DNA of 64,000 bases. Source: a virus. Its lineage: Duplodnaviria; Caudoviricetes. The stretch lies in IMG/VR virus record IMGVR_UViG_3300011116_001007; one strand, 5' to 3'. Each line of letters starts with the position of its first letter. The first letter of the stretch is position 1. Below the pieces are notes generated by a model. The model made no database searches. It was not told the origin of the DNA and saw nothing but the letters and a program-made list of their open reading frames with translations. Both the position numbers and the translations under genes were made by a program. Positions 23,013 through 59,762 of this stretch are shown piece after piece.

Positions 23013-24470
23013 TCATTTGGACAATAGTCGGCGTTGGTCGGTAATCTCAATCACTCGTTCTACCAAGTGACTGCGTTGAGCAAATGCCACTTCGTCCAGC
23101 ATGCCATGACGTGTGTATTGACGATCAATGTAGTTCCGAATGTGTCGCACGTCGTCTGCTGTGCTGGCTGTTTTTAACATGGTGTTGACAGTGTTCACAG
23201 TTTCTTTGACTCGTTGTTTCTTTTGTTTTTCTAGTGCAGCAAGGGAATCTTTGGTACGTTGTGCAATAATTTTTTTAACACCTTCTTCACCGCCATTGGC
23301 ATCCATGGTATCTTGATTGAACTTGCCAGTTTTGTAATATTTTGCTGCACCGTCGGCTCCTAGAAATATAGCAATACTTGGTGCTTCGGGGTGTTTATTG
23401 ATGTCTACCCCCAATTGATCCATGCGTTTTAAATTTTTATCATTGACAATATTAAATGCACGGTCCTGGTCTTCAGGTGTCCATTGTTTCAGTGGCTTTT
23501 GCAAGGTGGCATCTTCGCCACGTGCAGCTAAGATTGCAGCATTGGTCAACCCGTATGCACCCCATGCTGTGGTTTTTCTATTGTCTGGCCCTGCCGATCC
23601 AGTACCGGGAGCATAATGATGCCCGATGTCATAATCATCACCTGATTCACGTTTTTTTACTAAACCTGCTAGCCAATTACCTACCTGACCGGCTTTGTCT
23701 GCAGCACCTTTTTCTATACGTTGTATAACGTTAGGCTGCGATGGTGTGGGGGTGACCACATGCTTGGGCAGCACCACCGGGGGTTTTGGTTTTTTGGCAG
23801 TGACAATCTCTTCGCCGGGTGCCATAGAATCTGCAGCAGGCACCATTTCCGGCGCTGCTGCCGCTGATCGTGCCGCCGGTGCTGGGCTGCTGGGCATAAC
23901 AGATGGAGGCACAGCCCGACTACCTTTGGGAGTTAGTTCAGGAAATACATTAGAAACAAACTCGCCCGATGCAACTCGTTTTAATTTATCTACTAAAGAT
24001 GGTGCAGCAACCGGAGCAACAGCTGGCGGTAGATTTCCAGCATTTGGCCAAACTTGTACTTTGGGGTTTGCAATAGGATTTGGATCTTTCCAATTAGGCG
24101 ATCCAGACACCGGATCTCTGTCAGTACTGTGGGTGCCCATTGGTACTTGAGCAGGCACAGCAACTACTGGAGCAACAGACGGCGTTTGTATTTTTTTAGC
24201 TATTTTGGATAAATTATCACCGCGTTGTACTGCATAACTTGAGCCATCGGGCAAACTCAAAACTTGTCCGGGTTTGATAAGATTTGGATTGTTACCAATT
24301 ATGTCTTGATTGTTGAGATAGATTTGATTTACCAAATCTGGATCTATAGACCGATCTTCTTCTTCTAATGTGGGTGCTGCTGGTGCTTGTGGTGCCTTGG
24401 GTAATGCCAATGCAGGTGACCTAGGTGACATTGATGTTTCATTCACTGCAAAGAAATTTTCTAAGATCAT
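23013..24470 (-). CDS. LysM plus Pro/Ala linker plus lysozyme-like domain protein (probable virion protein)
   Basis: NPNLIKPGQVLSLP..YAVQRGDNLSKIA; RESGDDY..AWGAYGL..DQDRAF transglycosylase-like region. Confidence 0.6.
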   Translation of the reverse strand: MILENFFAVNETSMSPRSPALALPKAPQAPAAPTLEEEDRSIDPDLVNQIYLNNQDIIGNNPNLIKPGQVLSLPDGSSYAVQRGDNLSKIAKKIQTPSVAPVVAVPAQVPMGTHSTDRDPVSGSPNWKDPNPIANPKVQVWPNAGNLPPAVAPVAAPSLVDKLKRVASGEFVSNVFPELTPKGSRAVPPSVMPSSPAPAARSAAAAPEMVPAADSMAPGEEIVTAKKPKPPVVLPKHVVTPTPSQPNVIQRIEKGAADKAGQVGNWLAGLVKKRESGDDYDIGHHYAPGTGSAGPDNRKTTAWGAYGLTNAAILAARGEDATLQKPLKQWTPEDQDRAFNIVNDKNLKRMDQLGVDINKHPEAPSIAIFLGADGAAKYYKTGKFNQDTMDANGGEEGVKKIIAQRTKDSLAALEKQKKQRVKETVNTVNTMLKTASTADDVRHIRNYIDRQYTRHGMLDEVAFAQRSHLVERVIEITDQRRLLSK

Positions 24471-24471
24471 T

Positions 24472-25359
24472 TTATTTTTCTTCTAAGTAATCTTGATTTG
24501 AATCCGCAGGTTGACGATTCTGAAACAGTCTCACTGCTATATCAGCATGTTCAAGGTTTGGGAACCGTGTGGGCAAGCTGCGACCCGCATGACGTATTTC
24601 AAATCCGTTTTGTTCGTCACCCCAGCATTCCAATGTTTTGCCATTTTCCATAGCGTAGGTTCTAACTGGTGCATTTTCTTTTACTGGCAATAACGTATTG
24701 GGATTGATCCCTGCTTTTTTTGACTGCTCAGCTGCTTGCAACTCTGCAGGTGACGGCGGCGCCGGAATACCTTTTGCAGCGTTTGTAATTTGTTCATCGT
24801 CGGGCAACCAACTGCCAGTTTTGTACTTGTCTCTTGCGGCCTGCACAGCCATGCTAGGAAAACTCAACGGTGGATATATTCCTGCACCAGAAATACCTGC
24901 ACCAACGTAGTCGCCTAGATTTGCTCTGTTTATAGCATCTTGTGCTTGTAATCCAGCACCAATCACTGGCAGACTTTTTCCAAGTGCTTTGGCACCAACA
25001 GACATTGCACCAGCTTCTTCAACTTCGCCGTGCTCTATTGCGTCCAAGGCTTTGTTTTTTAGTTCGTTGCTGACACGACCTTTCTTTTCCAAGTGGTCAA
25101 GATATTGTGTGAGATCTTTTTTGACTCGACTGACCATGTCTTCTTCAATCTCAGCCATGGCTTCTTCCAAAGCAGTGCCGCGTCGCTCGCCCACCATGTA
25201 TCCATCCATGGGATCAGCAGGATCTGTTTGGCTGCCCAACACACGAATATGCTTGGGTTTGAACAATGCAGGCAGTTGCGGAACTTTCTGTTGTGCAGGG
25301 GACAGGCGTCCTTCCACAGTGGCCAGCCGGTCCAGTATGTGTCTTATGTCGTTGCTCAT
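24472..25359 (-). CDS. Modular hypothetical protein (probable virion internal protein)
   Basis: 295 aa; acidic xxE motifs; Gly/Ala-rich middle insert. Confidence 0.55.
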   Translation of the reverse strand: MSNDIRHILDRLATVEGRLSPAQQKVPQLPALFKPKHIRVLGSQTDPADPMDGYMVGERRGTALEEAMAEIEEDMVSRVKKDLTQYLDHLEKKGRVSNELKNKALDAIEHGEVEEAGAMSVGAKALGKSLPVIGAGLQAQDAINRANLGDYVGAGISGAGIYPPLSFPSMAVQAARDKYKTGSWLPDDEQITNAAKGIPAPPSPAELQAAEQSKKAGINPNTLLPVKENAPVRTYAMENGKTLECWGDEQNGFEIRHAGRSLPTRFPNLEHADIAVRLFQNRQPADSNQDYLEEK

Positions 25360-25796
25360 GCCCGTTCAACTTTTAAATAACTTAACAATTGCCAACGATA
25401 CTTGCCGTGAGCACTGAGTCGTTCTGCTATAAAGTTGGCGATACCTTGCTCGTTTTCTTCGGTGGCAGCAGCAAAGCAACTGTTGAGAATATCAAGCATC
25501 TGATCATTGTTGGCATGCAGTTCCTCCAGCATGAGTCGAGCACGTGGAATTTTTGTCTGTCCTGCAATCTGTGTGAGTTCTGTGAAACGTTCAAAACTGG
25601 CTGGAGAGTATTCGCCCAGGTAGCGTATGTATTCTGCAGTGGGATCAATGGCCGAATAAGCATCTTCGTAAATGCCCTGAAAGAATGTATGCAGCTCTCC
25701 AAAGTCTGGCCCTTCCACATTCCAGTGAAAACCGTGGGCCTTGATGTAGTAAGCAAAATTACTTGCTAGGAGAATTTTTAAACTGTCTGCGAGCAT
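25356..25796 (-). CDS. dps: Dps/ferritin-like DNA-protection protein
   Basis: HGFHWNVEGPDFGELHTFF..YED..D..AEYIR, HGKYRWQL. Confidence 0.88.
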   Translation of the reverse strand: MLADSLKILLASNFAYYIKAHGFHWNVEGPDFGELHTFFQGIYEDAYSAIDPTAEYIRYLGEYSPASFERFTELTQIAGQTKIPRARLMLEELHANNDQMLDILNSCFAAATEENEQGIANFIAERLSAHGKYRWQLLSYLKVERA

Positions 25797-25983
25797 GCTG
25801 GGTCCTTTTGTATTCTTTTGGAGTATTCGGAGTAGGGTCCGAGTCCGTGATATATTTACCAGAAAGCATGGATCCACCTGATCTTGTTTGCATGCCCATG
25901 CCCATGCTTACTGGTGCTATACTGCCACTTGAAGTGCCGCCTGCACTGGCACCATCTTCCATTATGAATTCTTTGGCTCTCAT
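25759..25983 (-). CDS. Small CTS-motif protein (MRAKEFIME)
   Basis: Start at second Met; Gly/Ser-rich. Confidence 0.55.
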   Translation of the reverse strand: MRAKEFIMEDGASAGGTSSGSIAPVSMGMGMQTRSGGSMLSGKYITDSDPTPNTPKEYKRTQHARRQFKNSPSK

Positions 25984-26459
25984 GGTTTGATCAAAACAGG
26001 TGACCATTCACCTGTTTCCTTATTAAAAACTTCAGCATGGCCGGCATTGACTGCTGTGTCGCTGGGTACTTTATCTACAGGCACACGTACTTTGGCATTA
26101 TCGCTTGCATTTTTCCAGTCTCGTCCAAAATGTCCTTCAGCATCTCCTGAAGACCAAAATTTCTGATCTGGAGACCAACCCGGTGTTTTTCCAGGATTGG
26201 GATTGGCTTGAAAATACCCAGTTGTCTGTGCATGTTGTAGCTCTGCAGGGCTCATGTTTCTGTAAGCATGAGTTATATCCTCAGGTTTTGCAGGCACTCG
26301 TCCAGTAAGCATTGATGAGCTAGTAGGCGGCGTCACAACAATATTTTTAACAGCAGGTTCTATCCTGGTTGCTGCCTTGGCCACAGCCGGTTCACCTGCT
26401 TTAAATGCTTTTGCTAAAAAAGAAGTCAATCCTTCACGGACAAATTCTTGGGCTCGCAT
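25980..26459 (-). CDS. CTS-motif protein (MRAQEFVRE)
   Basis: ORF track; coupled starts/stops. Confidence 0.55.
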   Translation of the reverse strand: MRAQEFVREGLTSFLAKAFKAGEPAVAKAATRIEPAVKNIVVTPPTSSSMLTGRVPAKPEDITHAYRNMSPAELQHAQTTGYFQANPNPGKTPGWSPDQKFWSSGDAEGHFGRDWKNASDNAKVRVPVDKVPSDTAVNAGHAEVFNKETGEWSPVLIKP

Positions 26460-27577
26460 CAGCAGTTCCACTTCCTCAGTGCCAGCGCCTTGCGTGTGGG
26501 TTTGCCATTGGGTTTCTTCATTGGACCGTCCACACCACTCATTCTAGCGCAGAAACTCTTGCGACGTTTGGCTGCTTTTGATCCAGGCTTGAGTTTTGAA
26601 GGCTTGGTGGTCACTGCCATCTGCAAATGACTGCCGGGATGTTCTCTGCGATAGCTGGCAACACCTTTGCGATTCAATCCGCCCTTGGCGCTCTTGCCTG
26701 CTTTGCGTCGCCAAGCAGCAGTTTCGCGAACAATCTGTTCATCTGTCACTGTGTCAAATGCATCTTCGGTAAGTCCACGTTCGGCCATGGCCTGTTCAAA
26801 ATCATCAAATATCTCATGAGCTTCCTCCAAGCTGCAGATGCTTTCTGCAGGATTGATGCTTCTGTAACCCAGTGAGTATTGTTCTACTTCTTCGGGATGT
26901 CGTGCTTGCTTGTCTTGCATGGTTTTCAACTGTGTGCGTGGGTTGAGTGTTTTAACTTTTCTGTTGGGATTTTGTTTGACATCACGGCGAGCATCCGCCA
27001 CACCGGCCGCATGCCAATGATTGTTTTCCGCCACACCTTGCTCTTCCACTCGGCCAGCATTGTGTGCTTTCCATGCTGTGGCAAAAGCAATAGATTTTTC
27101 TTGAGGAGTCAGCTTGCCATCCCGGGCATAACCCTGTTTAATGTGTTTGACCATGCGTTCGGCTTTGGCGCCTGGAGGGGCAACTTCAGCCACATCGCGC
27201 ATCAAATGATTGGCATCGCCGGACTTTTTCCATGCATCCCACATGGCTCGGCCGGCTGGCAATTGATTTCTGCTTGGCACAATGGTGTTGCCCAGGGCTC
27301 GCACATAGGCATAGATGTTACGTGCTAGACCTTGACCTTGATATTCAGGACGGAAACTGGTGATCAAGGATACCACGCCTGCTTTGCTTGGTTTGAATTT
27401 GGCAAGACCTGCTTGTTGAAAGTTGTCATCCAGCACTTTGACTGTGAGCACTGGCTTGCCGTATTCTTCTTCCACCGTGGCCCGATATGTCAACCCGTCA
27501 AAAATTTGTGTGTCATTAAATGCTGGATTAAAACAATCTGGATTGATTGCTTCTGTAATAAATTCTTTTGATCTCAT
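26459..27577 (-). CDS. CTS-motif modular protein: GNAT-like domain plus basic C-terminal (DUF6321-like) module
   Basis: MRSKEFITE; PEYQGQGLARNIY..QLPAGRAMW GNAT-like motif; AAWRRKAGK..GGLN..RRKSFCARM..KWNC. Confidence 0.6.
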   Translation of the reverse strand: MRSKEFITEAINPDCFNPAFNDTQIFDGLTYRATVEEEYGKPVLTVKVLDDNFQQAGLAKFKPSKAGVVSLITSFRPEYQGQGLARNIYAYVRALGNTIVPSRNQLPAGRAMWDAWKKSGDANHLMRDVAEVAPPGAKAERMVKHIKQGYARDGKLTPQEKSIAFATAWKAHNAGRVEEQGVAENNHWHAAGVADARRDVKQNPNRKVKTLNPRTQLKTMQDKQARHPEEVEQYSLGYRSINPAESICSLEEAHEIFDDFEQAMAERGLTEDAFDTVTDEQIVRETAAWRRKAGKSAKGGLNRKGVASYRREHPGSHLQMAVTTKPSKLKPGSKAAKRRKSFCARMSGVDGPMKKPNGKPTRKALALRKWNC

Positions 27578-27876
27578 TAAAATATCCTCAACGAAACTTC
27601 GTCACTGCCCACACCAACGATGACACCTGGACCGTCAATCACACGAAAATTGGTCACACGTATGCGCCCTGCTTCTCGGTCCACTGTTTCGTAACGTATG
27701 GGATATGTGCCCGTGGGTGCCATGATCTGATGTGTTTCTTCAAGATAAGTGTCAGTCCAGATCCAATTGCGCTCAGTGAACAATTCGTCATTGACGTATG
27801 CTCGATATCGCAGATTAGCACCCGGATACCGTTTGGCACTGACATCAACAGTAAATTGTATGAATTTAGGCTCCAT
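27577..27876 (-). CDS. Hypothetical late protein
   Basis: 99 aa; TAAATA at 27881-27886 upstream. Confidence 0.55.
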   Translation of the reverse strand: MEPKFIQFTVDVSAKRYPGANLRYRAYVNDELFTERNWIWTDTYLEETHQIMAPTGTYPIRYETVDREAGRIRVTNFRVIDGPGVIVGVGSDEVSLRIF

Positions 27877-27880
27877 AATT

Positions 27881-27908
27881 TATTTAGCAAAATATGCACC
27901 TATAAATA
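27881..27908. promoter_or_regulatory. Divergent T4-type late promoters (TAAATA minus 27881-27886; TATAAATA plus 27901-27908)
   Basis: Exact T4 late consensus TATAAATA 5 nt before ATG 27914; the same hexamer precedes many other ORFs (e.g. 35093, 36174, 37669, 38874, 43309, 44266, 45068, 46051, 52133, 60875, 60986, 61806). Confidence 0.7.
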
Positions 27909-27913
27909 TCTAT

Positions 27914-28954
27914 ATGCTTAAATTAGTTGACGTGCGGCAGATTCAAATTGAACTCACCACAAGATGCAACGCTCGTTGCCCCATGTGCATGCGAAACTAT
28001 CGAGGTATTGACTACAATTCGGGATATCCTGTGTGCGAACTCGGCCTTGCTGATTTCAAAAAAATACTCACACCTGCAATATTGACTGGAATCATGAGAT
28101 CAGACCCGCCAGTGAATGGAAGAGTTCCGATCAACTACAACTTTCAAGGCATCAATTTCAATGGCAATCTTGGCGATTTTTCCAACGCAAAAGATGGTGC
28201 AGAGATTGTGGAGTATCTGGTAGAGCACGGAGTTAATGTTCGTATCAATACCAATGGCAGTACCAGAACTCCAGATTGGTGGGCAAGATTGGCCCGTCCC
28301 GGAGTCTCAATAGGATTTGCATTAGATGGCCTGGCTGACACCCATCATCTGTACAGGCAGGACACAGACTGGCACAAAATAATAGCAAATGCCCAGGCGT
28401 TTATCAACGCAGGTGGGCATGCAGAATGGAGATTTGCGCCATTTGATCACAATCGCCATCAACAAGATGCATGCGAGAAATTATCTCGCGTGATGGGATT
28501 TGCTAGATTTGAAAACATATATGATGGCCGTGATCGCGGGCCAGTGTTCAATCGAGATCAAACATTCAGCCATCATATCGGCGAACCTGTTGGTCCAGCT
28601 CCGGATGTGCAGCCCATGTTGGAAAGTCATATCACATGGTATGATTCACGCACATTCCGCAGCGAAAAAGATTCCACCACATTGAATTTGCAATGCACAC
28701 ACAAAATGAACAGAGAGATATACATAGCAGCAGATGGATCTGTGTATCCTTGTTGCTATTTGGGGTTCTATCCAAAAACGATGAATTATCCAGGCAACAA
28801 AGAACTGGCACCCATGGTGCAACAAAACAATGCATTGGAACACACACTGGAGCATTGCCTGGAATGGTTTGAATCCATTGAACAGTCCTGGGCCAAAGAC
28901 AGTATCAGTCAAGGCCGAACATATCAATGCATAACTACATGTAATCGTGTATGA
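27914..28954 (+). CDS. Radical SAM/SPASM-twitch protein
   Basis: CNARCPMC, NGNLGD, NTNGS, YIAADGSVYPCCY; start moved to ATG 27914. Confidence 0.82.
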   Translation: MLKLVDVRQIQIELTTRCNARCPMCMRNYRGIDYNSGYPVCELGLADFKKILTPAILTGIMRSDPPVNGRVPINYNFQGINFNGNLGDFSNAKDGAEIVEYLVEHGVNVRINTNGSTRTPDWWARLARPGVSIGFALDGLADTHHLYRQDTDWHKIIANAQAFINAGGHAEWRFAPFDHNRHQQDACEKLSRVMGFARFENIYDGRDRGPVFNRDQTFSHHIGEPVGPAPDVQPMLESHITWYDSRTFRSEKDSTTLNLQCTHKMNREIYIAADGSVYPCCYLGFYPKTMNYPGNKELAPMVQQNNALEHTLEHCLEWFESIEQSWAKDSISQGRTYQCITTCNRV

Positions 28955-28990
28955 ATGCATGGCCTTATCATATCAATTTAGGAACATATT

Positions 28991-33099: not shown

Positions 33100-35085
33100 T
33101 TATTTTTTGCGGATGCCAGCTAAATTTTGCATGCGATTGATATCTTCGTTAAAATGCTGTGATTGCATTTTGGCCAGTTCGGCTGCAGGGACATTCTTTT
33201 GAAATGTTGTTGTGGGTGTACCATTCACATCCTGCTTGTGCATGTAATCTCCGGTGCCGGTCGCAGGATTTGTCGCTATAGTAACATCGCTGTAGTTACG
33301 GTTGGCCTGACCGTTTTTGGCTGCGGTGGTATCACGTGAGATTGTGCTTATGTTTGTGTTTAGATCTGGGCGAGTAGGCGGCGTTGCCTGTTTGTAAGAA
33401 TTGGTTGGTGCATGGTATTGCATCGTGGAGCCATCCTGCATGGGCATGGTTGCACTGCCCCATTTGAATCCGTCATCCATGGTGTCACCCGTGTCAGTTT
33501 CTTTTACTGAAGTTTTCCTTGGCTGACTGGCAGGTGTTCCGGCATTATATCCACCTTGACGATATCGATTCGCAATACCTGACAAGGTATCTCCTTTGTC
33601 AACCACAGCAAAAGTACCATTGGGCAGTTTGATTTGCTGCCCAGGATAGATACGATCAGGATTGGCTATTTTATTTGCTTGAGCTATGTCTTGCCACAAT
33701 GGTGCTGTTGTTTTTGATGCGGTTGTACCACCGGCCGCCGGTGCATTTTGTTTTGCTGCCCATGCTCTAGCACGATCTATTGTGGCTTGATCAATGCGAC
33801 CTTTACTTCCACCAGTGATTTCGCCATTATCACCGGCACCGTTGCCCATGGTCATGCTCATACGCACTGGCTGTGTTTTACCAGTGGATGATACTGCGTT
33901 GCCTGCTGGCACTGAGTTAGCTGCTGGTTCAGACTGGCGGTACGCTGGATTTATTACATATTGCCACGTAGTGCCGGCAGGCAGTCTGTTAGGATTGCTT
34001 GGGTCAGCTGCTGCACCAGATGCACCATCTCCAGCTTTTTTGCTATACTCGCCATTGACTTGCCCTGCTGGCAATATCACACTTGGCGGTGGGTATTCTG
34101 TGTTACTATTACTGCCGCCTGTGTTGGGTACTGAAAATTCTTCGCCATTGGCACCCTTATAAACGGTTGGCGCCGCAAATGGGTCTGGTAGATTGTTCAT
34201 CTTTGTTTGCCAACGGTTGATGTGGTTTCTTACGGCTGCTTCTTCTTCACTGTCCAGCGGTTTTATTTCCTGACCAGGCTTGAGGTTTTTGCCAAAGCGG
34301 TCCCAATTTTTCATGATATCCGGGCCATCATCGGTGTTGTTGGACATCGACCCAGCAACATCAGCAGGAGAAGGATAAGCATCGGCGGTTTCCATGGGCT
34401 GCATCATGTTATCATAATTGGCATTGGGGTTGGCTGTTGCTGGGCGTGTGTCTAGTCTAGGAGTTTCTTTGCCAGTTCCTGTCGCTGGCCTGCTGTCTAA
34501 GTAATTGGGTTTTTGTGTCAACGGTGTTGTGTGCATTTGGGGCGTTTCATTGCCTGTTCCTGTTGCCACTGGATGATTGATATAATCAGTTTCTGCTCGA
34601 CCTACCAGCTTTGTGAGTGCGTTGAGATTTTTTGTAAGTTCAGGATTTTGAAATGCTTTCATGCCTTTGTTAAAAGTTCCAGACACATCCACATCGCCTT
34701 TGGGATTCAAAGCCATTGAATTTTTAACTGCGGCCGGATCAGGAGCAGCCATGCCGCGTTCAGCAGCAGTTGAATACATGTTCTTGACATAATCTGTAGT
34801 GGGCATTGATCCTAGACTGCCAGGTGGCAACTCATTGGCGTCTTCCGCTAAATTCTGCTGACCATACATGTCAAGAATTTGATCAACGTAAAAACTATAA
34901 AAGCCGCGGCGGCCGTTGTATTCTCTGTCTCCCAACACTCGCTTTAGTGCCAGCACAGCGTCACTCACTGTTGGACCTTGCATCACTCGTAATGCGTCAG
35001 TGACAAGTGAGTCAACTCTTTGCGAGTTTTCTGTCACATTGCGTGCAGATCTTTTGGGGTTGGTAAAAAAATCGTTGATGATCAT
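33100..35085 (-). CDS. Modular LysM-containing probable virion protein
   Basis: IANPDRIYPGQQIKLP..VVDKGDTLSGIA; low-complexity linkers; C-terminal RMQNLAGI; late promoter upstream. Confidence 0.6.
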   Translation of the reverse strand: MIINDFFTNPKRSARNVTENSQRVDSLVTDALRVMQGPTVSDAVLALKRVLGDREYNGRRGFYSFYVDQILDMYGQQNLAEDANELPPGSLGSMPTTDYVKNMYSTAAERGMAAPDPAAVKNSMALNPKGDVDVSGTFNKGMKAFQNPELTKNLNALTKLVGRAETDYINHPVATGTGNETPQMHTTPLTQKPNYLDSRPATGTGKETPRLDTRPATANPNANYDNMMQPMETADAYPSPADVAGSMSNNTDDGPDIMKNWDRFGKNLKPGQEIKPLDSEEEAAVRNHINRWQTKMNNLPDPFAAPTVYKGANGEEFSVPNTGGSNSNTEYPPPSVILPAGQVNGEYSKKAGDGASGAAADPSNPNRLPAGTTWQYVINPAYRQSEPAANSVPAGNAVSSTGKTQPVRMSMTMGNGAGDNGEITGGSKGRIDQATIDRARAWAAKQNAPAAGGTTASKTTAPLWQDIAQANKIANPDRIYPGQQIKLPNGTFAVVDKGDTLSGIANRYRQGGYNAGTPASQPRKTSVKETDTGDTMDDGFKWGSATMPMQDGSTMQYHAPTNSYKQATPPTRPDLNTNISTISRDTTAAKNGQANRNYSDVTIATNPATGTGDYMHKQDVNGTPTTTFQKNVPAAELAKMQSQHFNEDINRMQNLAGIRKK

Positions 35086-37705: not shown

Positions 37706-38365
37706 TCAATACACAGGTTGTTTGACCAGTTGATTCACAAAGCTCAGCAGCAATTGATGATGGCGCCGTTCATGCCAGTGCGGTTTCATCCAACTCCAGC
37801 CGTTGTACCAGAACTTTTCACTTTCGGGGTGACAGCCTATCAGGCCTATGCGGCCCTGCATGATGGCCATGGCATCGCCATTGGCGTATGTGGCAACAGT
37901 TTTGAATCGTTTTGGATTGCCTACCAACGCACACCCGTCATAAAAAAACATCTTTTCTTCGCGGCCGCGCCAGGTCACATCAAGTCCTTTGGCATGCGGC
38001 CGTCGAGTGTCTGTGCCGGGACGCCGGATGTATTGTGCGGCATCCACACCGTCAAGTATATCAAAGTAATGACTGCCGGCCCAGTAAGCACCCATGCAGA
38101 TGCCCAGATAGTAACCGCCTTTTTGCACGAAGTCTATCACTCGATCGCCATTGTTGCGGAACAAGCGATAGAAGCTGTCTGAGTCTCCTATGCCGCCAGG
38201 AAACGCCACGATGTCCACGTCATCAAAGAAACAATCTTCCAAGACATTTTTTCCAAACATCTTGAAGTTATACTGTGGTGACAACGCCTGCATCATACCA
38301 TTGACACTTTGCACTGAACATTTGGGATCGGCTACAAAAAGTGCTATGGTTTTGCGGACTGTCAT
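37706..38365 (-). CDS. BPL-N / class I glutamine amidotransferase-like protein
   Basis: FPGGIGDS, GGYYLGICMGAY nucleophile elbow, GCHPE. Confidence 0.75.
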   Translation of the reverse strand: MTVRKTIALFVADPKCSVQSVNGMMQALSPQYNFKMFGKNVLEDCFFDDVDIVAFPGGIGDSDSFYRLFRNNGDRVIDFVQKGGYYLGICMGAYWAGSHYFDILDGVDAAQYIRRPGTDTRRPHAKGLDVTWRGREEKMFFYDGCALVGNPKRFKTVATYANGDAMAIMQGRIGLIGCHPESEKFWYNGWSWMKPHWHERRHHQLLLSFVNQLVKQPVY

Positions 38366-38868
38366 GATAGGTCAATGATAGGAATTGGGCCGTCAAATGG
38401 CCTACTGTTTACCACAGTTTTGAGTTTGAACAACATGTTCTGGCTGCTGATACGTCGCATGCCCAAGCCCAGTTGTGTTTCGGGATCATAAGCCCATACT
38501 TGTGTGTTGGGTTCTACCTGTGCCAGCTGATCAGCAATGCCGTTTAATTTCTTTAGACTTTGATCTATGGCATGTGGATTGATACCACGTGTGCGTGTGC
38601 GATCCACAGCATGATCGTCTATTGCCACAGTCAGCTGAGGAAAGTGTAGATTGCCAATTATGGTTTCGTTGGTCTTTTTGCGCTTGCCACTTTTCATGTT
38701 GGCCATCCAGTGGGCTAGTTGTGCTGCCCTGCCCGAGTGATTTTTAGCAAATTTGCGTAAGTTGCTCACACTGGATTTAGTGGGCACATGATGGCGTTTT
38801 GAATCACCTTTGTCTTCAGGATGTCGACCATCAGCAAAGTTTTCGGTAATAAATTCTCTTGCTCGCAT
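38362..38868 (-). CDS. CTS-motif two-module protein (MRAREFITE)
   Basis: ENFADG..WMANMKSGK basic module, then TNE junction and a second domain; TAAATA upstream. Confidence 0.6.
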   Translation of the reverse strand: MRAREFITENFADGRHPEDKGDSKRHHVPTKSSVSNLRKFAKNHSGRAAQLAHWMANMKSGKRKKTNETIIGNLHFPQLTVAIDDHAVDRTRTRGINPHAIDQSLKKLNGIADQLAQVEPNTQVWAYDPETQLGLGMRRISSQNMLFKLKTVVNSRPFDGPIPIIDLS

Positions 38869-38911: not shown

Positions 38912-41900
38912 TTACTGGGCTTGACGCACACTGTAGTCAGCAGGGTTGAGTGTTATGCCAGTGTCGTTGCTGGTTTGTTGTACCCATTGACGACCTTCTG
39001 CCCAGGCCGCAGCTTGTGTGGCAGCATCCAACGGGAACATGCTCACTCCATCACTACGTCGATACACTTCCCACTGGGGCGCGGCTGCTGGCTGCGATGT
39101 ATACTGTGCAACATCTGGCTCAATGTCTTGCACTCCAGGAATTGGAGTAGGTGTCCGACGGTTAGCAGCATGTTCTGCATCAGCGGCCATGCTGGCTGCT
39201 GCTATTGCATTATAGCGTTGACGAGCTAGATCCAAGGTGCTGCCTGGGATGGGTGCTCGACGAACACCAAACGCTGCTGTGGCCTGCTGCGAATTTAATG
39301 TATGCGGACCCATGCTTCTATATTGATTCAAGAATTCTAAAGCTGCTGCATCATTGGCCGCTTGGAATGTTTCTAAGGGGCTGCTGTCCTCTCGGTCGTA
39401 AATCTCGTAAGTGACTGTGTCTGCATCAGCGGGTACTTCAGCAGGCACAGGAACCACTTCAAACGGTCCGCGAGCAGCCATATTAAGTGGCGGTAGCCAA
39501 TGGGCTTGCACCCATGCTAGTGCTGCTGCGTTGGCATCTGCTTGCACATTTCTATTCCAGAAAGTATGCACAACATCTCCGTCGTCGGCAACAATGTTCC
39601 ATTGCACACTACCGGCTTCGGGTGCTGATGCAGGTGCTGCAAACTGCGTGGTATCCACAATCATGTAATCAGCAGCATTTGCATTTTCTCGAGCAGCCCA
39701 GGCCGACATCACAGAACGAAGTTGGGCTTGGCTATAGCCGTCCCCTAGGGTAAATCTAAACAAGTAGTCTGGTGCAGGTCCTGATGTTCCGCTGCCGTAG
39801 CTGTAGACTCGAGGATCATCACGTCGCACTATGGCCAGTTGACCGTTGGGGTCATTGGGTCTGCCACGGCCTTGGGGATGTGATGCTGTGGTACTGGCTC
39901 CTGCTGCGGGCTCATCCAGTCTGGTCACAGTCAGTGCATCATCATGAAATCTCCAGTTGGGCTGCTGTTTTATGGCCTGCTTCTTGGCATCTACAGGGTC
40001 AGCGGCAATCACTTCTACCACGCCGCCACCCAATTCAGGCTTCAATGACACTCTCCATCGATGACCATTCACAATGTCCTCACCAGACTTCTTGGCCTTG
40101 CGGTCGGCTTGTGCTTGCCGCACAAAACTCTTTAGCGCAGCAGCAGGTAGTTCGCCTGCGGCATACTTGGCAAATACAGCCAGGGGATCTTTTTCATCTT
40201 TGGGTGCCAATATCTTGTATAGTTTTTTCAGATACTCTTGTCTATACGCTTCAGGATCTAATGCAGCACTCATGGCCACTGTGAATCTCATGAGAGTGTT
40301 TTCAATCTTGTCAAAGTTGTCGTCCAACCAGTCTCCGCCGGGGCTACGAAACTCAATGTGCCCATCCTTGGTGTTGATACTGGTGTATTTTTCTGTTGAG
40401 CCCGAGTGTATGGCTTTACTAGCCAAAGCACCCATGTGCCCTTTCATCTTGTCCAACAAATATTTTGCTTCATAAGGCCGTTGACGCACATGATCACGCA
40501 CTTTGCCCATGGCACTCTTGGCGTAGGAGTTACCTGCCCGCCCAAACTGCTCTAACACATATTCGTCGCCCATCAGCAGGGCCAGCTTTACAAAATCCAG
40601 TCGATTCTGGCTGTAATTGGGCACTGAGATATTGATGTGTAGCCCAGTAGAATCATTGGTGTAGCAGCCCATGCGATTGGCCCAGGCTTTGACCTTGTTC
40701 AAGTCACTCATGATGTCATCTATAGGCAATGGTGGGCTCACAAACTCCAGGCCTGAATCTTGTGGGTCATCCGGTTCCAAACTGCCATCGGGTTCTACCA
40801 CATAGAAGTTTTTGCCCGGCGCAGGACGCTCCACACTGCTGGAATGATACCCTGAAGATGCCTTTACAGGACGACCCACCGCCCGACTGAAATCGTCTGC
40901 TATATCTTCAACGCTGGTGCCACCAGCAAGACTGCTGGTATAGTGTGGCCAATGTATAATTCCATTATAACGATGATAGATATCACTCATGTGGCCCAGG
41001 CCAGAGTCACCCAACCATTCTTCAAAATTGTCATTTTCGTAGAACTCATCGCGGGACTGTTCCAATGCATCATCATAGAAAGGTTGTAGTTGTTCAGTAA
41101 CAATCATGTCCGCAGCCAGTTGATATTCTTTTTTACCAAGCTCGTCCTCTGATTCTAGATCCAACAACTCTCTGATGCTATCTTCGTCAACATTTTCTCG
41201 GATGTAATCGTAGATGAATGTTTTAGCATCTGAATCCCAGCGAGTATCAAACTGTTCCACTTGCCAGTCGCCGTAATCATCCAGCATGCGATCAACCAAC
41301 TCCTGGGCATTTCTGCGACCGTTGTAGTCACCATCATAGAAAAAATCTTGAATATCTCTAGGGCTGCTGGCACGTTCATCAGAATCAAAGTCGGGTTCTA
41401 GTTCATCATCTTCGGATGAAGTGTTGGGCACAATCATTTCAAATTCCATACCAGCCAGGGCACCTGTCTTGGCTGCTTCTCGACGCAGATTCTTGCCACC
41501 CATGTTGATTTCAAACAGATCCTGATCTTCAAACAATCTCAATTCTTGTCGCAGGCTTGCTACCAATTTATTTTCAGCCACATTGTAGGTAGGGTCAGTT
41601 TTTTGACGCTTCATGCCTTTGGGCTGGTTAGGATCAACAGGATCAATGTCAGTGGTTGATAACCCTAATTTTTCTAACTTATTGATGTACTTGTGTTCAG
41701 TATCTTCGTCACCAAAGCTCACAATAGTGCTGGGTGGCCCTTTGCCAAATTCGCTGGGATCAGCACGATCCAGATTGGCAATGTGCTTGCCCAACTTGTA
41801 CCAGTCATACACGTCACTCACATCTACTCGTACTGTGCCTTTGGGCATGGTGGGTTTGAATTCAGGCCCCAATGGCTCATTGAGGTCACGATACTTGCCC

Positions 41901-43300
41901 TGACCCTGCGACGGTTGCGGCATAGAACTTTCACGTAGATTCACAGACTTGATCAACAACTTGGGCTCTCCGTTGGGCCCTGTTTGCAATGCCATCTTGT
42001 TGGCTTCTCGGCCTGTTTGTCCCGGACGCACATCCACACTCAAGGCCATGGCATACTGTGGCATGGCCGCTTCCTTTTTGTTCTTGGGAATGTATCCTGA
42101 CGCACCTTCGCCCAGGGATTCTGCGGCAAAGTATTCAGGATGTGACGCAGCAAAATCTCGCATGATGATGCCAGCTCTGGCATTGGCATCATTTTCGTAT
42201 TCACTGCCAGTTTCTCCAGCATCCAGTGGCAGGCCACCTTGCGTCTGATGTTGATCACAATGCACCAGTTCATGTGCTATGGTGCGGAACACATCCAGGA
42301 TATGGCGATTGGGCAAGCTCACATTGAGAGTGTTTGATTCTGGCTCATAACGTCCAAAGCTGTGATTGCCTTCACTCCATTCAGGATCTGTGTGTATGAC
42401 TATTTTGGGAGCAGGATCAATGCCCAGTTCCGTGACCACATGCTGGATAAAATCATTCACTGCCTGATTGTCCTCGTCGCCTTTTTCACTCAAGAACATT
42501 CGGGTACTGGCACTGACCCCATCTGGAGTTATTGTGACATCTTCTGCGATGCGATGGCCAAACCCATAGGTCACACGACCTTTTTCTCTGTTCTTTTCCA
42601 CTAGACTCATGGCATGATCTTGTGCTGCCACGTGAGCATCTTTCAGCAGTCGGATGCAGCCTTGATCGCGCAGCACTTTGAACGTGATGTTTTCGCAACC
42701 AAATTCCCCATGCTGTTCCAGCCCAATTTGGCGCATGGCTTTGATCTTGTTCCACAGGGTGGACATCATATCAGCATTGCCAGACTCAACAGCAGCGTGT
42801 ATTCTAGCGTCTAGATCAGCTGCTTTGTCACGCACACATGAGTCATCAATCTGTGCTCGTCGGCGGCGCGGCACTTGTATCCATTTGCCATCCTTGACTG
42901 AATAAATGCCCTGACTCACATGCGGCTGGCCTGCAGGTTGCACATACAATTCCACATCAGCACCGCCAATGGTCAAATTGTGTTCGTCGTTGTATTGGTA
43001 TTTTTTAGCGTTGAACAGTTCCTGATACACAGGATCATCAGGCATGTCCACTATCAAATGTAGATCAATGTCGCTGTGGTCAGTATAGTTGTATGCTGCA
43101 TTTGACCCCGACAGTGTGATGTCTTGCACTCGGAGATTGTCCACTCCCAAGAATTCACGGAAGTCTTCTGCAATTGCCAGCAGTTTGTCACGAACATCTG
43201 GCAGCAGATGTTCATTTGAACCCCACAACCGACGGTTAAGTCGATTATGGTATTTTACAGTGTCGCTCAGGCGGAATTGATCTAGTTCATTGAAGTTCAT
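38912..43300 (-). CDS. 1462-aa polyvalent protein: Pol-beta-type nucleotidyltransferase, HExxH zincin, amidoligase (COOH-NH2 ligase), C-terminal repeats
   Basis: GSNAAYNYTDHSDIDLH; AHELVH; GMEFEM..EPDGSL..GLEFVSPP..STGLHINIS..IEFRSPGG. Confidence 0.75.
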   Translation of the reverse strand: MNFNELDQFRLSDTVKYHNRLNRRLWGSNEHLLPDVRDKLLAIAEDFREFLGVDNLRVQDITLSGSNAAYNYTDHSDIDLHLIVDMPDDPVYQELFNAKKYQYNDEHNLTIGGADVELYVQPAGQPHVSQGIYSVKDGKWIQVPRRRRAQIDDSCVRDKAADLDARIHAAVESGNADMMSTLWNKIKAMRQIGLEQHGEFGCENITFKVLRDQGCIRLLKDAHVAAQDHAMSLVEKNREKGRVTYGFGHRIAEDVTITPDGVSASTRMFLSEKGDEDNQAVNDFIQHVVTELGIDPAPKIVIHTDPEWSEGNHSFGRYEPESNTLNVSLPNRHILDVFRTIAHELVHCDQHQTQGGLPLDAGETGSEYENDANARAGIIMRDFAASHPEYFAAESLGEGASGYIPKNKKEAAMPQYAMALSVDVRPGQTGREANKMALQTGPNGEPKLLIKSVNLRESSMPQPSQGQGKYRDLNEPLGPEFKPTMPKGTVRVDVSDVYDWYKLGKHIANLDRADPSEFGKGPPSTIVSFGDEDTEHKYINKLEKLGLSTTDIDPVDPNQPKGMKRQKTDPTYNVAENKLVASLRQELRLFEDQDLFEINMGGKNLRREAAKTGALAGMEFEMIVPNTSSEDDELEPDFDSDERASSPRDIQDFFYDGDYNGRRNAQELVDRMLDDYGDWQVEQFDTRWDSDAKTFIYDYIRENVDEDSIRELLDLESEDELGKKEYQLAADMIVTEQLQPFYDDALEQSRDEFYENDNFEEWLGDSGLGHMSDIYHRYNGIIHWPHYTSSLAGGTSVEDIADDFSRAVGRPVKASSGYHSSSVERPAPGKNFYVVEPDGSLEPDDPQDSGLEFVSPPLPIDDIMSDLNKVKAWANRMGCYTNDSTGLHINISVPNYSQNRLDFVKLALLMGDEYVLEQFGRAGNSYAKSAMGKVRDHVRQRPYEAKYLLDKMKGHMGALASKAIHSGSTEKYTSINTKDGHIEFRSPGGDWLDDNFDKIENTLMRFTVAMSAALDPEAYRQEYLKKLYKILAPKDEKDPLAVFAKYAAGELPAAALKSFVRQAQADRKAKKSGEDIVNGHRWRVSLKPELGGGVVEVIAADPVDAKKQAIKQQPNWRFHDDALTVTRLDEPAAGASTTASHPQGRGRPNDPNGQLAIVRRDDPRVYSYGSGTSGPAPDYLFRFTLGDGYSQAQLRSVMSAWAARENANAADYMIVDTTQFAAPASAPEAGSVQWNIVADDGDVVHTFWNRNVQADANAAALAWVQAHWLPPLNMAARGPFEVVPVPAEVPADADTVTYEIYDREDSSPLETFQAANDAAALEFLNQYRSMGPHTLNSQQATAAFGVRRAPIPGSTLDLARQRYNAIAAASMAADAEHAANRRTPTPIPGVQDIEPDVAQYTSQPAAAPQWEVYRRSDGVSMFPLDAATQAAAWAEGRQWVQQTSNDTGITLNPADYSVRQAQ

Positions 43301-46049: not shown

Positions 46050-46691
46050 TTATTTAGCCTGTATTGGCACAGTCTTGCGAACAATTCCCGGCAGAACGAG
46101 ATTCAACATCAGCGCATCATTGATGTCATGATGATCGATAAAATTCCAGTCATTGGTGTAAAAATGCTTGTAATGAAACATCCGCCCGTCATCGCCAATC
46201 AATCGAGACTGCAAGCCCGGCGTGATCCTAAAATAGTCCGGGCGGTTGGCAAAAAATTGTATAAATCTATCGCGCTCAATGTCGTTGAAATATTTGCCTC
46301 TGAGATAAGTTCTGTATTGATGTTGTGTTTTTTCAAGCACAACCACATCCTTTGCTCGATCAACCACACATTGATTGTACTTGGCTGTTCTTGTTATGTA
46401 GGACAAGGCCGCCAAGTCTTTTAACAGTGTTAAATTATTGGTGTAAACATATACCCAACTGCCGTAGATGATAGATTTATGTGCATCTTTGTCGGCTGCC
46501 AACAGCATGGCCACTTCGCCCACATCAGAATACTCGGGCATACGCTCCACAAAGTCTTTTATATCTTTTGTATTGGAATATTTGAATAATCTACGCCATC
46601 TGCCAACTTCTTCCAATCTAAAATCTATGGCATACTCGTACTGATCATAGTACAAACTGCCTCGGGACACGTATTTGAAGTCAATCATCAA
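46050..46691 (-). CDS. Hypothetical protein
   Basis: 213 aa, coupled to clpA stop. Confidence 0.55.
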   Translation of the reverse strand: MMIDFKYVSRGSLYYDQYEYAIDFRLEEVGRWRRLFKYSNTKDIKDFVERMPEYSDVGEVAMLLAADKDAHKSIIYGSWVYVYTNNLTLLKDLAALSYITRTAKYNQCVVDRAKDVVVLEKTQHQYRTYLRGKYFNDIERDRFIQFFANRPDYFRITPGLQSRLIGDDGRMFHYKHFYTNDWNFIDHHDINDALMLNLVLPGIVRKTVPIQAK

Positions 46692-49021: not shown

Positions 49022-49807
49022 TTATTGGTGTTGTTGGATGGCATCTAACAATGCATCGGGAATGGCATCAGGAATTCGAGCCTGCATGCGTACCAAAATG
49101 TCGCCAGGCGGTCCATCTTTGCTGACCAAGCCCTGACCTTTCAATCGCATGATCGAACCTGGTTGTGTGCGCGGTGGCACAGTCATGCTCAGTGTACTGC
49201 CAGTGGGTGTGTGTATTTCAACATCTGAGCCCAGGATCAGTTTCCAAATGTCCACTTTGCGTTCGCAATGCAGGTTGAATCCATCTCTATGCCAAACTGG
49301 ATCAGGATTGATTCTAAACTGCACAATCAGATCCATACCGCCAGGTGCTATGCCACCGTATTGCACATTGTCGCCGTCTTGAATGGATCGAGGAATGTCA
49401 ATCTGCACAGTGGTAGTGCCCACAGCAGTGCTCACGCTCACAGTTTTTGCACCACCGCGTATGGCATCGGCTAGCGATATCCACAAGTTCATGGTGACCT
49501 GACGGCGCTGTTGCTGTTGTTGGGCATGCATCTGCTGGCCAAACATTTGGCTGAATATGTTGTTGAGATCAAACGGATTGCCCGGAAATCCACCACCAAA
49601 ATGCTGTGTGTGTTGCTGCGGATTGTTGTAGGCTGCTCGCTTTTGATCGTCGCTGAGTGTTTCGTAAGCAGCTTGGATTTGTTGGAATTTGGCAGTGTCA
49701 CCACCTTTGTCAGGATGATGCTGACTGGCCAACCGACGATAGGCCTTTTTTATGTCATCAGCAGATGCTGTGCGCGGTACACCCAGGGTGTCATAATAAT
49801 CACTCAT
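49022..49807 (-). CDS. DnaJ/CbpA-like co-chaperone (no zinc finger)
   Basis: [23 protein letters not shown] domain, G/F region, DnaJ-C. Confidence 0.9.
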
Positions 49808-50644: not shown

Positions 50645-50646
50645 GA

Positions 50647-50775: not shown

Positions 50776-50776
50776 A

Positions 50777-52127: not shown

Positions 52128-52151
52128 GTAGATATTTATCTACTAGTATTA

Positions 52152-53009: not shown

Positions 53010-53058
53010 GTTATTTCTATTTGTTTGAAGTGTGGTGTGCTATTATTTACCGAGCATG

Positions 53059-54571: not shown

Positions 54572-54574
54572 AAC

Positions 54575-56804: not shown

Positions 56805-56855
56805 AACTTCTCCTTAAATATGTTTGAAATCAAAGTTATTTACCAAAAATTTTAT

Positions 56856-57590: not shown

Positions 57591-57592
57591 CG

Positions 57593-58228
57593 TTATCTGC
57601 CGGCCGCAGCCAACGCTGCACCGCGGTTGAAACTGTCAGACCAGCTGGCAGCATGAACGTTGCCGCGGGCCTTGGACCAACGATATCCGGCTCTGTGTCC
57701 CGAACAATCTTTGGTGCAAGGGCTTCCTAAGAAACTCAATTCATCCAGTTGCTGTGTGGGCTCCAAGAATGTGGCAGCAAACTGATGGCACAGTTCATGC
57801 AGTTTGCGATTTCTTGTGCATTCGGTGTGAAATCGCTTGTGGCCGACTCGTTGTGTGGGATCTTGATAGCCGCAGTACACTTTGTGTATGCCGTGTTCAT
57901 GCAAGAGATCGGTACAAGGAGCGCCGTCACGTTCGTCCATGTGTTCGCTGCAAGGACTCAGCGTGGTGATCACTATGCTGCCCCTGGGCACAGCGCCAAA
58001 CTGCTGAGTGTAAGCATTGATAGCAGCACGTTCAGCATGCACACGATGACCAGTGTCACTGGGATGATTGATGCTGGCTATGCATTGATTGTCAGGATCC
58101 AGCACCGCAGCAGCCACCATGCCCAGATCAGGATTCTGTTGTTGGCCGCGAATGACCATTTCGCATAACTGTGCAAGTATGCGATCTAGTTTGTCGTGGT
58201 CGTGTATTTGGAAATCTTCAGCTCTCAT
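57593..58228 (-). CDS. Zn-dependent deaminase (RibD/CDA-like) with extra C-terminal Cys module
   Basis: HAE and TLSPC-x11-C; then LDELSFLGSPCTKDCSGHRAGY. Confidence 0.75.
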   Translation of the reverse strand: MRAEDFQIHDHDKLDRILAQLCEMVIRGQQQNPDLGMVAAAVLDPDNQCIASINHPSDTGHRVHAERAAINAYTQQFGAVPRGSIVITTLSPCSEHMDERDGAPCTDLLHEHGIHKVYCGYQDPTQRVGHKRFHTECTRNRKLHELCHQFAATFLEPTQQLDELSFLGSPCTKDCSGHRAGYRWSKARGNVHAASWSDSFNRGAALAAAGR

Positions 58229-58392
58229 TGCATTCGAAATGACATACTGATAGGGATCATTCTGGTGGATCTACGCACTTTGCGTTGTTGACGTTCAGAT
58301 GTTTGCGGCGTTTCAGGACCTGCTGGTGCATCAAGTCGGATGGGCGCACCGGGCAGTGGACGTATAGGGCGGCCATTGGCAGTGCGTTTCAT
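58225..58392 (-). CDS. Possible small basic protein (55 aa)
   Basis: Fills the gap with ATGA overlaps on both sides; no recognisable motif. Confidence 0.35.
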   Translation of the reverse strand: MKRTANGRPIRPLPGAPIRLDAPAGPETPQTSERQQRKVRRSTRMIPISMSFRMQ

Positions 58393-59762
58393 CGTGGTTG
58401 CACCGCTGTGGGCATGTGACGATACTGACGTGGACCATTAGGTGCGGCTGCAGGCGGCGTTGTGACACCGGCCAGTCGACGCATGGCCGCAAGTGAATCT
58501 TCTGCTAATCCTGCTTGTCTCTCGTCTGTGGTGTCGCCGGTGACCTGATATGTTTTTCCATGTACTACAAATGTGTCTTGGTCGGCTTTGATAGCATTCA
58601 TTCTAGCATCAGTGAATACATTGGATTCCGCCATGCCCTGTTGTCCGTATGCAGGATCTTTGTATTTGTCCAGGGCTCGAGGTATATCACGGTTAACTAT
58701 TCGCGCGGCTTTTTTGTTATTGGTTGTGGCCAATCCAGCAGGGCCTTTTATTCTAGCGGGTTGTGCTCGAACGTAATTTCTTAATGTGTCTTTTGAAAGT
58801 TCGTCCAGTTGATCTTCATCCACTTGCTCTGCAGCTTTTCTGAATCCTTTGTTGGGAATCCATCCTGCAATGGGCTTGCACTTGCAACTATCACCAGGGC
58901 ACTTGCAGTTGATCATGCCACATTGGCGACAGCGGTTTTCTTCGCTTTCCTCTATGCTTTCGTTGGGCACACAGTTGCGAACTTGCCCACCATTTTTGCC
59001 TGTTTTGGTGCCTTCGGCATGCTTGCCTGGCCAGCAACGAGTGTAGCCATTGCTGTCTTTCTCGCCCTTTTTAATTTCGTTTAGACTGCCGTGTGTTTGA
59101 CACATGCCACAGTCTTCACACACCATTTCCATTTCAATTGATTCATTGTGCTTCTGTTTACCGGCACAGTGCGCCTTTTGGCTGAAACCTTTGGGGTGGC
59201 TGCAATTGATTGAATTCTTGTACTTTTGACTCCACTCCTCCGCCACACCTTTGACTGGTTTGATGTCAATGATGTCTAGATCATATTCGTTGGCCAATTT
59301 CCATGCTGCTTCAAAGTCAGGAGCGTCAATAGTCATCTTGCCACCTTCACCATGTGATCCACTATGAATCACCAGCCACTTTCGCATGCCTTCCGCCACA
59401 CTTTGTTTGTTGATATCTTTTTGACGCAGACTGTTTTTCATTGTGTCAATCTTCTTGCCTGCACCCACTTGGTCAGCATTGGCATCTTTAGCAGCCTGGT
59501 TGTAGGCACGTTTTCGTTTCTTGAGTTCTGCGTTCTCCGCCACACCTTGCTTGTTTAGATCTTTCAATTTAGCTAGTTTGGCATCATTATCAAACTGTTT
59601 TATGGTAGCAGCATTTATGCCTTTAAAACGTTTGTGACCGCGAGCAAAATTGCCCGCTGCGTCTGCTGCTGCGGCGTCGGCACCTGCGTCAGTTTTGTAT
59701 TTTGTTAATTTTTCGTTGGCTTTTAATAGCCGTTCTTTTTCATCAAATTCTCGTAGTCTCAT
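58389..59762 (-). CDS. CTS-motif multi-module polyprotein
   Basis: MRLREF; short modules separated by GVAE/SVAE/GMAE/GLAE; several Cys-rich modules; C-terminal MRRLAGV. Confidence 0.65.
   Translation of the reverse strand: MRLREFDEKERLLKANEKLTKYKTDAGADAAAADAAGNFARGHKRFKGINAATIKQFDNDAKLAKLKDLNKQGVAENAELKKRKRAYNQAAKDANADQVGAGKKIDTMKNSLRQKDINKQSVAEGMRKWLVIHSGSHGEGGKMTIDAPDFEAAWKLANEYDLDIIDIKPVKGVAEEWSQKYKNSINCSHPKGFSQKAHCAGKQKHNESIEMEMVCEDCGMCQTHGSLNEIKKGEKDSNGYTRCWPGKHAEGTKTGKNGGQVRNCVPNESIEESEENRCRQCGMINCKCPGDSCKCKPIAGWIPNKGFRKAAEQVDEDQLDELSKDTLRNYVRAQPARIKGPAGLATTNNKKAARIVNRDIPRALDKYKDPAYGQQGMAESNVFTDARMNAIKADQDTFVVHGKTYQVTGDTTDERQAGLAEDSLAAMRRLAGVTTPPAAAPNGPRQYRHMPTAVQPR

Follow-up and report, generated by a model that had tools for sequence, protein, structure and literature searches.

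A nine-residue N-terminal leader as a candidate capsid-targeting propeptide with modular cargo in uncultured aquatic jumbo phages

Results

A short leader opens unrelated genes of an uncultured jumbo phage

The 64,000-nucleotide stretch analysed here (the window; IMG/VR record IMGVR_UViG_3300011116_001007) comes from an uncultured freshwater jumbo phage, recovered in a lake metagenome and only distantly related to T4, and its coding sequence lies almost entirely on the minus strand. It is part of a 215,674-bp contig (Ga0151514_10001) of JGI metagenome 3300011115. Several otherwise unrelated proteins of the window begin with a common nine-residue leader, MRAxEF(I/V/L)xE, and we describe here this leader and the proteins that bear it. 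A sequence-only reading had listed eight such N-termini as a family resembling the capsid-targeting sequence (CTS) of the T4 internal proteins; all eight lie where it placed them, at minus-strand start codons (genes such as 25983 are named by the first base of the start codon on that strand). Four of them fit the strict pattern M-R-(A/S)-x-E-F-(I/V)-x-E, and four more genes carry looser variants. A six-frame scan of the window for MR..[ED]F returned six matches, all at the starts of minus-strand open reading frames (ORFs) and each at the first or nearly first ATG of its ORF. With a degenerate DNA pattern for M-R-x-x-E-F-x-x-E, four matches were obtained in the window against 0.01 expected from 100 dinucleotide shuffles, which ruled out a chance origin. 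Moreover, the copies differ from one another by synonymous codons, and the DNA upstream of them is unlike between copies; conservation therefore resides at the protein level and points to selection on the peptide. A DNA repeat as the source of the leader is ruled out by the same codon variation.

The strict leaders precede proteins of 74, 159, 372 and 168 residues, all encoded on the minus strand. What follows the leader in the 74-residue protein (25759..25983, MRAKEFIME) is rich in Gly and Ser and basic, with an isoelectric point (pI) of 10.1, and opens with residues similar to those at the predicted maturation junction of the relatives' major capsid protein. The 159-residue protein (25980..26459, MRAQEFVRE) carries a domain of unknown function. 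The 372-residue protein (26459..27577, MRSKEFITE) comprises a GNAT-like module, a QGVAE junction (E184), an acidic linker, an IVRE junction (E285) and a DUF6321 module of pI 11.9, and the 168-residue protein (38362..38868, MRAREFITE) joins a basic NFADG module (residues 10-68) through a KTNE junction (E68) to a 100-residue C-terminal module.

The looser variants stand on larger or enzymatic proteins, likewise on the minus strand. A 457-residue protein (58389..59762) starts with MRLREFDEKE, which departs from the consensus in lacking I-x-E at positions 7-9, and contains five (G/S)(V/M/L)AE junctions (E76, E124, E175, E379 and E421), with a Cys-rich WSQKY module after E175 and RRLAGV in the tail. 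A 211-residue deaminase (57593..58228) bears the degenerate leader MRAEDF, without Glu at position 9, and a basic Cys-rich mini-module follows its LDE junction (E163); its counterparts in relatives are either embedded in giant proteins or preceded by MR(L/F)xEFD leaders. We speculate, by analogy with the Asp10 result in T4, that the window deaminase might be targeted yet left uncut. The remaining two are a 485-residue LysM and lysozyme-like protein (23013..24470), whose start, MILENFFAVNE, is like that of the gp67-position prohead-core gene of relatives, and a 661-residue LysM protein (33100..35085) that starts with MIINDFF and carries a C-terminal NLAGIRKK. Overall, the predicted products include several very basic pieces (pI 10.1-11.9).

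Family-library searches matched PF00383 in the deaminase, LysM in the 485- and 661-residue proteins and DUF6321 at the C-terminus of the 372-residue protein. A GNAT lead was obtained for the N-terminal part of the latter, and a lead to SLT/destabilase-like enzymes for the 485-residue protein in its C-terminal half, so that the GNAT-like, deaminase and lysozyme-like modules named in the sequence-only reading hold. PHROGs and Pfam returned no match for the 159-residue protein, the 168-residue protein or the commonest leader family among relatives (126 residues). The AlphaFold model of the 159-residue domain was poor (pLDDT, the predicted local distance difference test score, 56), and Foldseek found no match for it in the PDB at E <= 0.001. 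An ADP-ribosyltransferase identity for this domain, prompted by a conserved THAYRN, found no support.

The leader recurs at gene starts across uncultured relatives

No cultured phage matched at DNA level when 15 kb were searched by megablast, and an exact 50-mer had no match in IMG/VR. The family-B DNA polymerase is closest to those of Sinorhizobium phage Phosso (49.5%) and Agrobacterium phage Atu_ph07 (46.0%), both jumbo myoviruses, and polymerase and head genes alike belong to the T4/Atu_ph07 type. Among uncultured viruses, the strict leader pattern occurs in at least 120 IMG/VR contigs. When all fetched loci were scanned in six frames for M[RK]xxEF, 85 of the 88 unique matches proved to be ORF starts, and 61 of these 85 have [ILVM]-x-E at positions 7-9, including all four strict cases of the window; the consensus over the fetched loci is M-R-A-x-E-F-I-T-E. 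At least 234 complete unique tagged ORFs (51-596 residues) form at least 31 groups without any common module. Reversed-pattern controls gave 0 matches in the 15 IMG/VR relatives scanned, and single reversed matches appeared only in Phosso and Atu_ph07, under a separate ten-residue pattern. Leader genes can be densely packed: one relative, the 36.5-kb IMG/VR contig G003, has nine leader matches within 7 kb, with tandem tagged genes behind a gene for a 2547-residue protein.

The commonest tagged family accounts for 107 of the 234 listed ORFs (loci L200-L319; for example L245, 11806-12186, minus strand). Its members are about 126 residues long, have a conserved SP(V/L)xxF(K/Q)GY tail and frequently occur as tandem pairs.

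Glutamate junctions delimit exchangeable modules

Gene 43300 encodes a polyvalent-type giant of 1462 residues (38912..43300, minus strand) with an NTase-like N-terminus, an HExxH stretch and Amidoligase_2; several unrelated effector-type domains are thus combined on one polypeptide of a portal-terminase phage. The 2547-residue protein of G003 is collinear with it over about the first 1434 residues and then carries as additional internal segments the deaminase, the 159-residue domain and both modules of the 168-residue protein; it also has a faint metallopeptidase match. The window protein stops exactly where the G003 protein continues via PVTE|S into the deaminase. Furthermore, homology to the 168-residue protein begins right after the leader Glu, with ITE|NFADG in the window against SVQE|NFADG in G003. 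The basic NFADG module, 57 residues long, was found at 62 IMG/VR loci, either directly behind the leader or C-terminal in larger proteins, and every internal copy found has x-x-Glu just before it.

In a systematic test, we took the 70 residues that follow the leader in each tagged ORF and aligned them to positions inside the remaining ORFs. This junction test yielded 35 distinct contexts from at least five module families (NFADG, WSQKY, the GNAT module, the C-terminal module of the 168-residue protein and one more). Position P1 is Glu in 28 of the 35 (background 6.5%, p about 3e-27), and position P3 is V/I/L/M in 23 of these 28 Glu junctions (background 29%, p about 9e-9), while P2 and P4-P6 vary freely. 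Because P1 and P3 are constrained and the intervening and preceding positions are free, the signature is of the protease-site type and not that of a DNA block, and in sequence it is the T4 gp21 motif, L/I-x-E. Sites of the form [GS][VLIM]AE number eight in the 20,407 residues of the window proteome, and six of the eight fall in the 372- and 457-residue proteins; five of them are in the latter, one directly before the WSQKY module. Since the same modules are found interchangeably either alone behind the leader or built into giant proteins, a protease site would be their common delimiter.

The leader accompanies a gp21-type head module

A gp21-type prohead protease (Peptidase_S77, PF03420) was found in 9 of 10 large leader-bearing IMG/VR relatives. 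Among five relatives of 170-210 kb, PF03420 is present in four and the leader in four; among five of 245-353 kb, all carry PF03420 and have 2-8 leaders per genome, three of them being 99-100% complete genomes of about 340-350 kb with 3-7 leaders each. The proteases of relatives share the catalytic His and the GVSSRG block with T4 gp21. The cultured phages Phosso and Atu_ph07 both encode PF03420, the former with one leader match and the latter with none. A metagenome scan with the protease profile returned at least 600 stretches, of which at least 578 were confirmed relatives; the source contig of the window is not among the best 80 loci.

The 159-residue domain offers a comparison, as it also occurs in unrelated phages of about 60 kb. 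Five such phages, at least 92% complete, carry the domain and no leader, and PF03420 is absent from both of those searched for it (G004 and G005). In these phages the domain forms a 200-residue gene of the structural module, in one case 2.7 kb from the major head protein gene. The leader tracks the gp21-type head module and not the cargo domain. In the 60-kb phages (loci L006-L024, for example L014, 5848-6450), the domain starts differently (MKKRKKFDDGGSVMD...) and ends in a basic tail (SRADGIAQRGKTRG); these features may constitute the packaging signal used by another head system.

Head loci of relatives encode, in order, a small ORF at the gp67 position, an acidic core protein, the protease, the scaffold and the capsid protein; the capsid, scaffold and protease genes lack the MRAxEF leader. 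The capsid protein contains ...RKYL-x-E followed by SATAGATSAGNVATLNRVI, an L-x-E site that matches by position the cleavage of T4 gp23 after FLTE. Its P' side, SATAGATSAGN, is echoed in small tagged proteins, including the 74-residue protein of the window, in which the leader Glu is followed by (T/N/D)(A/G)SAG(A/G)TSxGS(I/V)A. The small proteins therefore copy the P' side of the presumed cleavage site of the capsid protein, and they may be decoy or competitor substrates or mimics of the capsid N-arm. Tagged proteins of 51-78 residues (25759-25983 in the window; L091, L094 and L109) share SAGATSxGS(I/V)A with the major capsid protein starts in L111-L114.

In dozens of these head loci, the gp67-position ORF starts with M(I/L)L(R/N/K)E(L/F)(F/Y)Y, for example MILRELFY, and its counterpart in Phosso, an 80-residue ORF directly after the portal gene, starts with MRYNEFSKE. 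The resemblance of these starts to MILENFF, a looser type that the sequence-only reading had already grouped with the leader, supports the latter as a second core-associated N-terminus. The scaffold protein of the clade (loci L111-L198) always ends with (R/K)(R/K)LAGL(K/N)(V/I), for example RRLAGLKV. Similar tails, NLAGIRKK in the 661-residue protein (33100-33120) and RRLAGV in the 457-residue protein (about 58470-58490), may be a second, scaffold-like capsid-binding tag, a likeness that is suggestive only.

Late-type promoters and neighbouring genes

TAAATA is the core of the T4 late promoter, TATAAATA. In the window it stands 4-8 nucleotides upstream of the ATG in eleven minus-strand genes, including 38868 (5 nucleotides), 35085 (7), 43300 (8) and the operon heads 27876 and 60869, which bears out the earlier statement that several of the listed genes follow such promoters. 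Sites on the minus strand lie at 60880, 52138, 46056, 45073, 43314, 38879, 37674, 35098 and 27886, and one on the plus strand lies at 27903. Operon head 60869 leads to 59762 and 58228, and operon head 27876 to 27577, 26459 and 25983. This placement suggests T4-type late promoters and would fit late expression. A spacing of 4-8 nucleotides leaves no room for a Shine-Dalgarno sequence and so suggests leaderless or near-leaderless mRNAs; initiation contexts of the tagged genes are mixed, with ATGA-overlap coupling in some, GAGGA in one and others possibly leaderless.

The TAAATA at 27886-27881 and the 99-residue operon-head gene behind it occupy 27577..27886 (minus strand), and the operon continues toward 23013, its tagged genes 27577, 26459 and 25983 being translationally coupled. 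Farther along the same operon, a 295-residue protein (24472..25359, minus strand) has a Glu-ended N-terminus (MSNDIRHILDRLATVE-G) and homologues that start with MRI(N/K)xL(L/I)E; this is a tentative candidate for a second leader class. A Dps/ferritin-like gene (PF00210; 25356-25799, minus strand), which has no leader, also belongs to this cargo operon, and the gene for the 74-residue protein overlaps it at its end. Between the two groups of tagged genes lie a ClpA/ClpB-like AAA+ ATPase (phrog_4871; 46688-48949, minus strand) and a DnaJ-like protein (49022-49807, minus strand).

Discussion

Proteins injected together with phage DNA are the first to act in infection, and those of T4 include anti-restriction factors; such proteins are hard to recognise by sequence. 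We consider it probable that MRAxEF(I/V/L)xE is a propeptide that directs proteins to the capsid as the T4 CTS does, and that its cargo is modular and protease-delimited. Under this model, tagged proteins would bind the scaffolding core of the assembling prohead late in infection, and the gp21-type prohead protease would cut after the last Glu of the leader and after internal (V/I/L/M)-x-Glu linkers such as QGVAE. The modules freed in the head would comprise a GNAT acetyltransferase, the deaminase, LysM and lysozyme-like proteins, and very basic modules of 50-90 residues (NFADG, DUF6321 and the Cys-rich WSQKY). The basic modules would probably remain on the DNA, and the enzymes would probably be ejected with it to function in the host. 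The earlier proposal of a T4-like leader trimmed after x-x-Glu therefore stands in part: the strictly N-terminal position of the leader, its presence on many unrelated proteins, the gp21-type proteases and the Glu junctions speak for it, and 58228 and 59762 fall outside its consensus.

Several observations weigh against this model. The window contains no protease gene within its 64 kb, and Atu_ph07 has the protease yet no leader of the MRAxEFIxE form. The 1462-residue giant protein bears no such leader, TAAATA also precedes genes without an obvious virion role, and the invariant Glu before NFADG could in principle be part of the fold of that module. In cultured phages, tblastn found nothing for the 168- and 126-residue proteins, and for the 457-residue protein only a short module in cyanophages. 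Moreover, the early T4 gene 61.1 (NC_000866 18966-19130), beside the primase, annotated only as hypothetical and not known to be packaged, starts with MKTFKEFIKE, so that a CTS-like start with I-x-E is not by itself proof.

The readings that compete with packaging and injection differ in how much of the evidence they accommodate. One that we hold to be unlikely accepts that the leader targets the prohead and takes the cargo for core, scaffold or DNA-condensing parts that are degraded, expelled or kept, and not for injected effectors. The short Glu-ended N-termini of T4 gp67, gp68, gp22 and gp21 would fit such a role, as would the very basic small modules (pI 10-12), the RLAG(L/I/V) tail motif of the scaffold in two of the proteins and the mimicry of the capsid maturation junction by the 74-residue protein; GNAT, deaminase, amidoligase and lysozyme-like enzymes, however, have no obvious role in assembly, and these modules are also found in polyvalent proteins, for which delivery with the DNA is predicted (PMC5512222). 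It is decidedly improbable, in our estimate, that the leader and the Glu linkers are mainly recombination joints that serve module shuffling without any proteolysis. Modules are indeed heavily reshuffled between solo genes and giant proteins, but the synonymous variation of the leader codons, the constraint on P1 and P3 with freedom at P2 and P4-P6, and the association of the leader with the gp21-type head module instead of a cargo domain all argue against this reading.

Two further proposals place the function of the nonapeptide outside the capsid. It might enhance translation initiation on poorly led or leaderless late mRNAs, or be a recognition tag for the ClpA-like ATPase or the DnaJ-like protein, both of which are encoded in the window; A/T-rich codons, and the genes without a Shine-Dalgarno sequence that start 4-8 nucleotides after TAAATA, would agree with the former. 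We give this very little credence, since initiation contexts differ between tagged genes, the capsid, scaffold and protease genes of relatives do without the leader, and the internal Glu junctions and the correlation with the protease would be left unexplained. A radical-SAM/SPASM-like gene (27914-28954, plus strand) adjoins the operon, and one of the tagged proteins is as short as 74 residues, which brings to mind the leader peptide of a ribosomally synthesized and post-translationally modified peptide, read by the neighbouring enzyme. This possibility is negligible, and we rejected it: tagged proteins reach 596 residues and contain folded enzyme domains, and in many of the contexts that contain leader genes no radical-SAM gene is nearby.

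If the leader is a capsid-targeting propeptide, a bolder extension may be drawn, which we put forward tentatively and judge somewhat more doubtful than not. A large clade of uncultured aquatic jumbo phages might run a combinatorial cargo system, in which modules by the dozen, effectors as well as DNA-binding ones, move between tagged solo genes and giant polyproteins; as all of them would be delimited by prohead-protease sites, the capsid protease would act as a decoder that releases a strain-specific injected arsenal. Were the targeting model correct, the nine-residue leader would amount to a portable 'zip code' from which injected proteins could be listed directly in metagenomes and, together with the junction rule, would allow candidates for injection to be listed for hundreds of uncultured jumbo phages. 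It would also connect the 'polyvalent proteins' of Aravind with processing by a capsid protease and could be used as a short tag to load foreign proteins into large capsids. For two orphan families, DUF6321 and the NFADG module, it would suggest a testable function as basic proteins inside the head.

The closest known system is the CTS of the T4 internal proteins IPI, IPII and IPIII (Mullaney and Black 1996; reviewed in PMC9026906 and PMC3012670). In the T4 record, ipII and ipIII start with MKTYQEFIAE and ipI with MKTFKEF, and gp21, gp22, gp24, gp67 and gp68 likewise have short Glu-ended N-termini. Cleavage by T4 gp21 falls behind L/I-x-E, and the ten N-terminal residues of IPIII are enough for packaging; within this CTS, residues 4 and 7 serve mainly targeting, and residues 8 and 10 processing (PMC9026906). 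The window leader is one residue shorter and keeps E-F-I-x-E, so that its F6, I7 and E9 correspond to F7, I8 and E10 of T4. Both systems place a short N-terminal leader with this core and an end in the gp21 motif on unrelated, often basic proteins; relatives of the window phage encode a gp21-type protease, and the tagged genes are scattered in variable regions behind late-type promoters. The leaders differ in length (nine residues against ten) and in their first residues (MRA against MKTY), Tyr4 of T4 having no counterpart, and the cargo described here, known from genes alone, includes multi-module proteins with cleavage-type linkers.

In phiKZ-like giant phages (201phi2-1, phiKZ and SPN3US), too, a diverged homologue of gp21 cleaves many head-internal proteins behind Glu residues, and the propeptides are regarded as targeting signals (PMC5694885, PMC7411985, PMC10052503). 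That lineage is unrelated and differs in its S/A/G-x-E motif and in having no single N-terminal nonapeptide common to the cargo. The window phage and its relatives show neither that motif (P3 being V/I/L/M in 23 of 28 junctions) nor a phiKZ-like set of head genes. Also similar in content are proteins of T4-like cyanophages and of a marine virus. Synechococcus phage S-SM2 gp108 (L321 1174-1602) starts with MKTLKQFLKE, Prochlorococcus phage P-TIM68 gp111 (L320 979-2100) with MMKSFIDFSE, and a protein of marine virus AG-345-E15 (L002 2221-3585) with MKTFEQFTE; the first two and the DUF6321 (T4-GC 119) proteins carry the same WSxKY/DUF6321 modules after x-x-Glu in the structural region, and the marine virus protein has WSxKY and/or DUF6321 after x-x-Glu. 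The cyanophage proteins differ in having a ten-residue T4-type leader, come from cultured marine phages and are annotated only as hypothetical. We found no published link between the S-SM2, P-TIM68 and DUF6321 proteins and a CTS, and the text of the paper on the S-SCSM2R virion proteome does not name the relevant ORF. With WSxKY and DUF6321 behind CTS-like starts and x-x-Glu in these phages, the system seems to span the aquatic T4 superfamily.

Polyvalent proteins provide the other parallel, having been predicted to be packaged and delivered with DNA (Iyer et al. 2017, PMC5512222). Like them, the giants found here (1462 residues in the window and 2547 in G003) combine NTase-like, metallopeptidase-like, amidoligase and deaminase domains, of which solo versions exist. 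For polyvalent proteins, autoproteolysis by embedded metallopeptidases was proposed (PMC5512222), whereas here the separators are (V/I/L)-x-Glu of the prohead-protease type, the solo versions bear a dedicated leader, and the capsid protease is the proposed cutter. What is new beside the CTS and internal-protein system of T4 is therefore the protease-delimited modular cargo and the link to polyvalent proteins.

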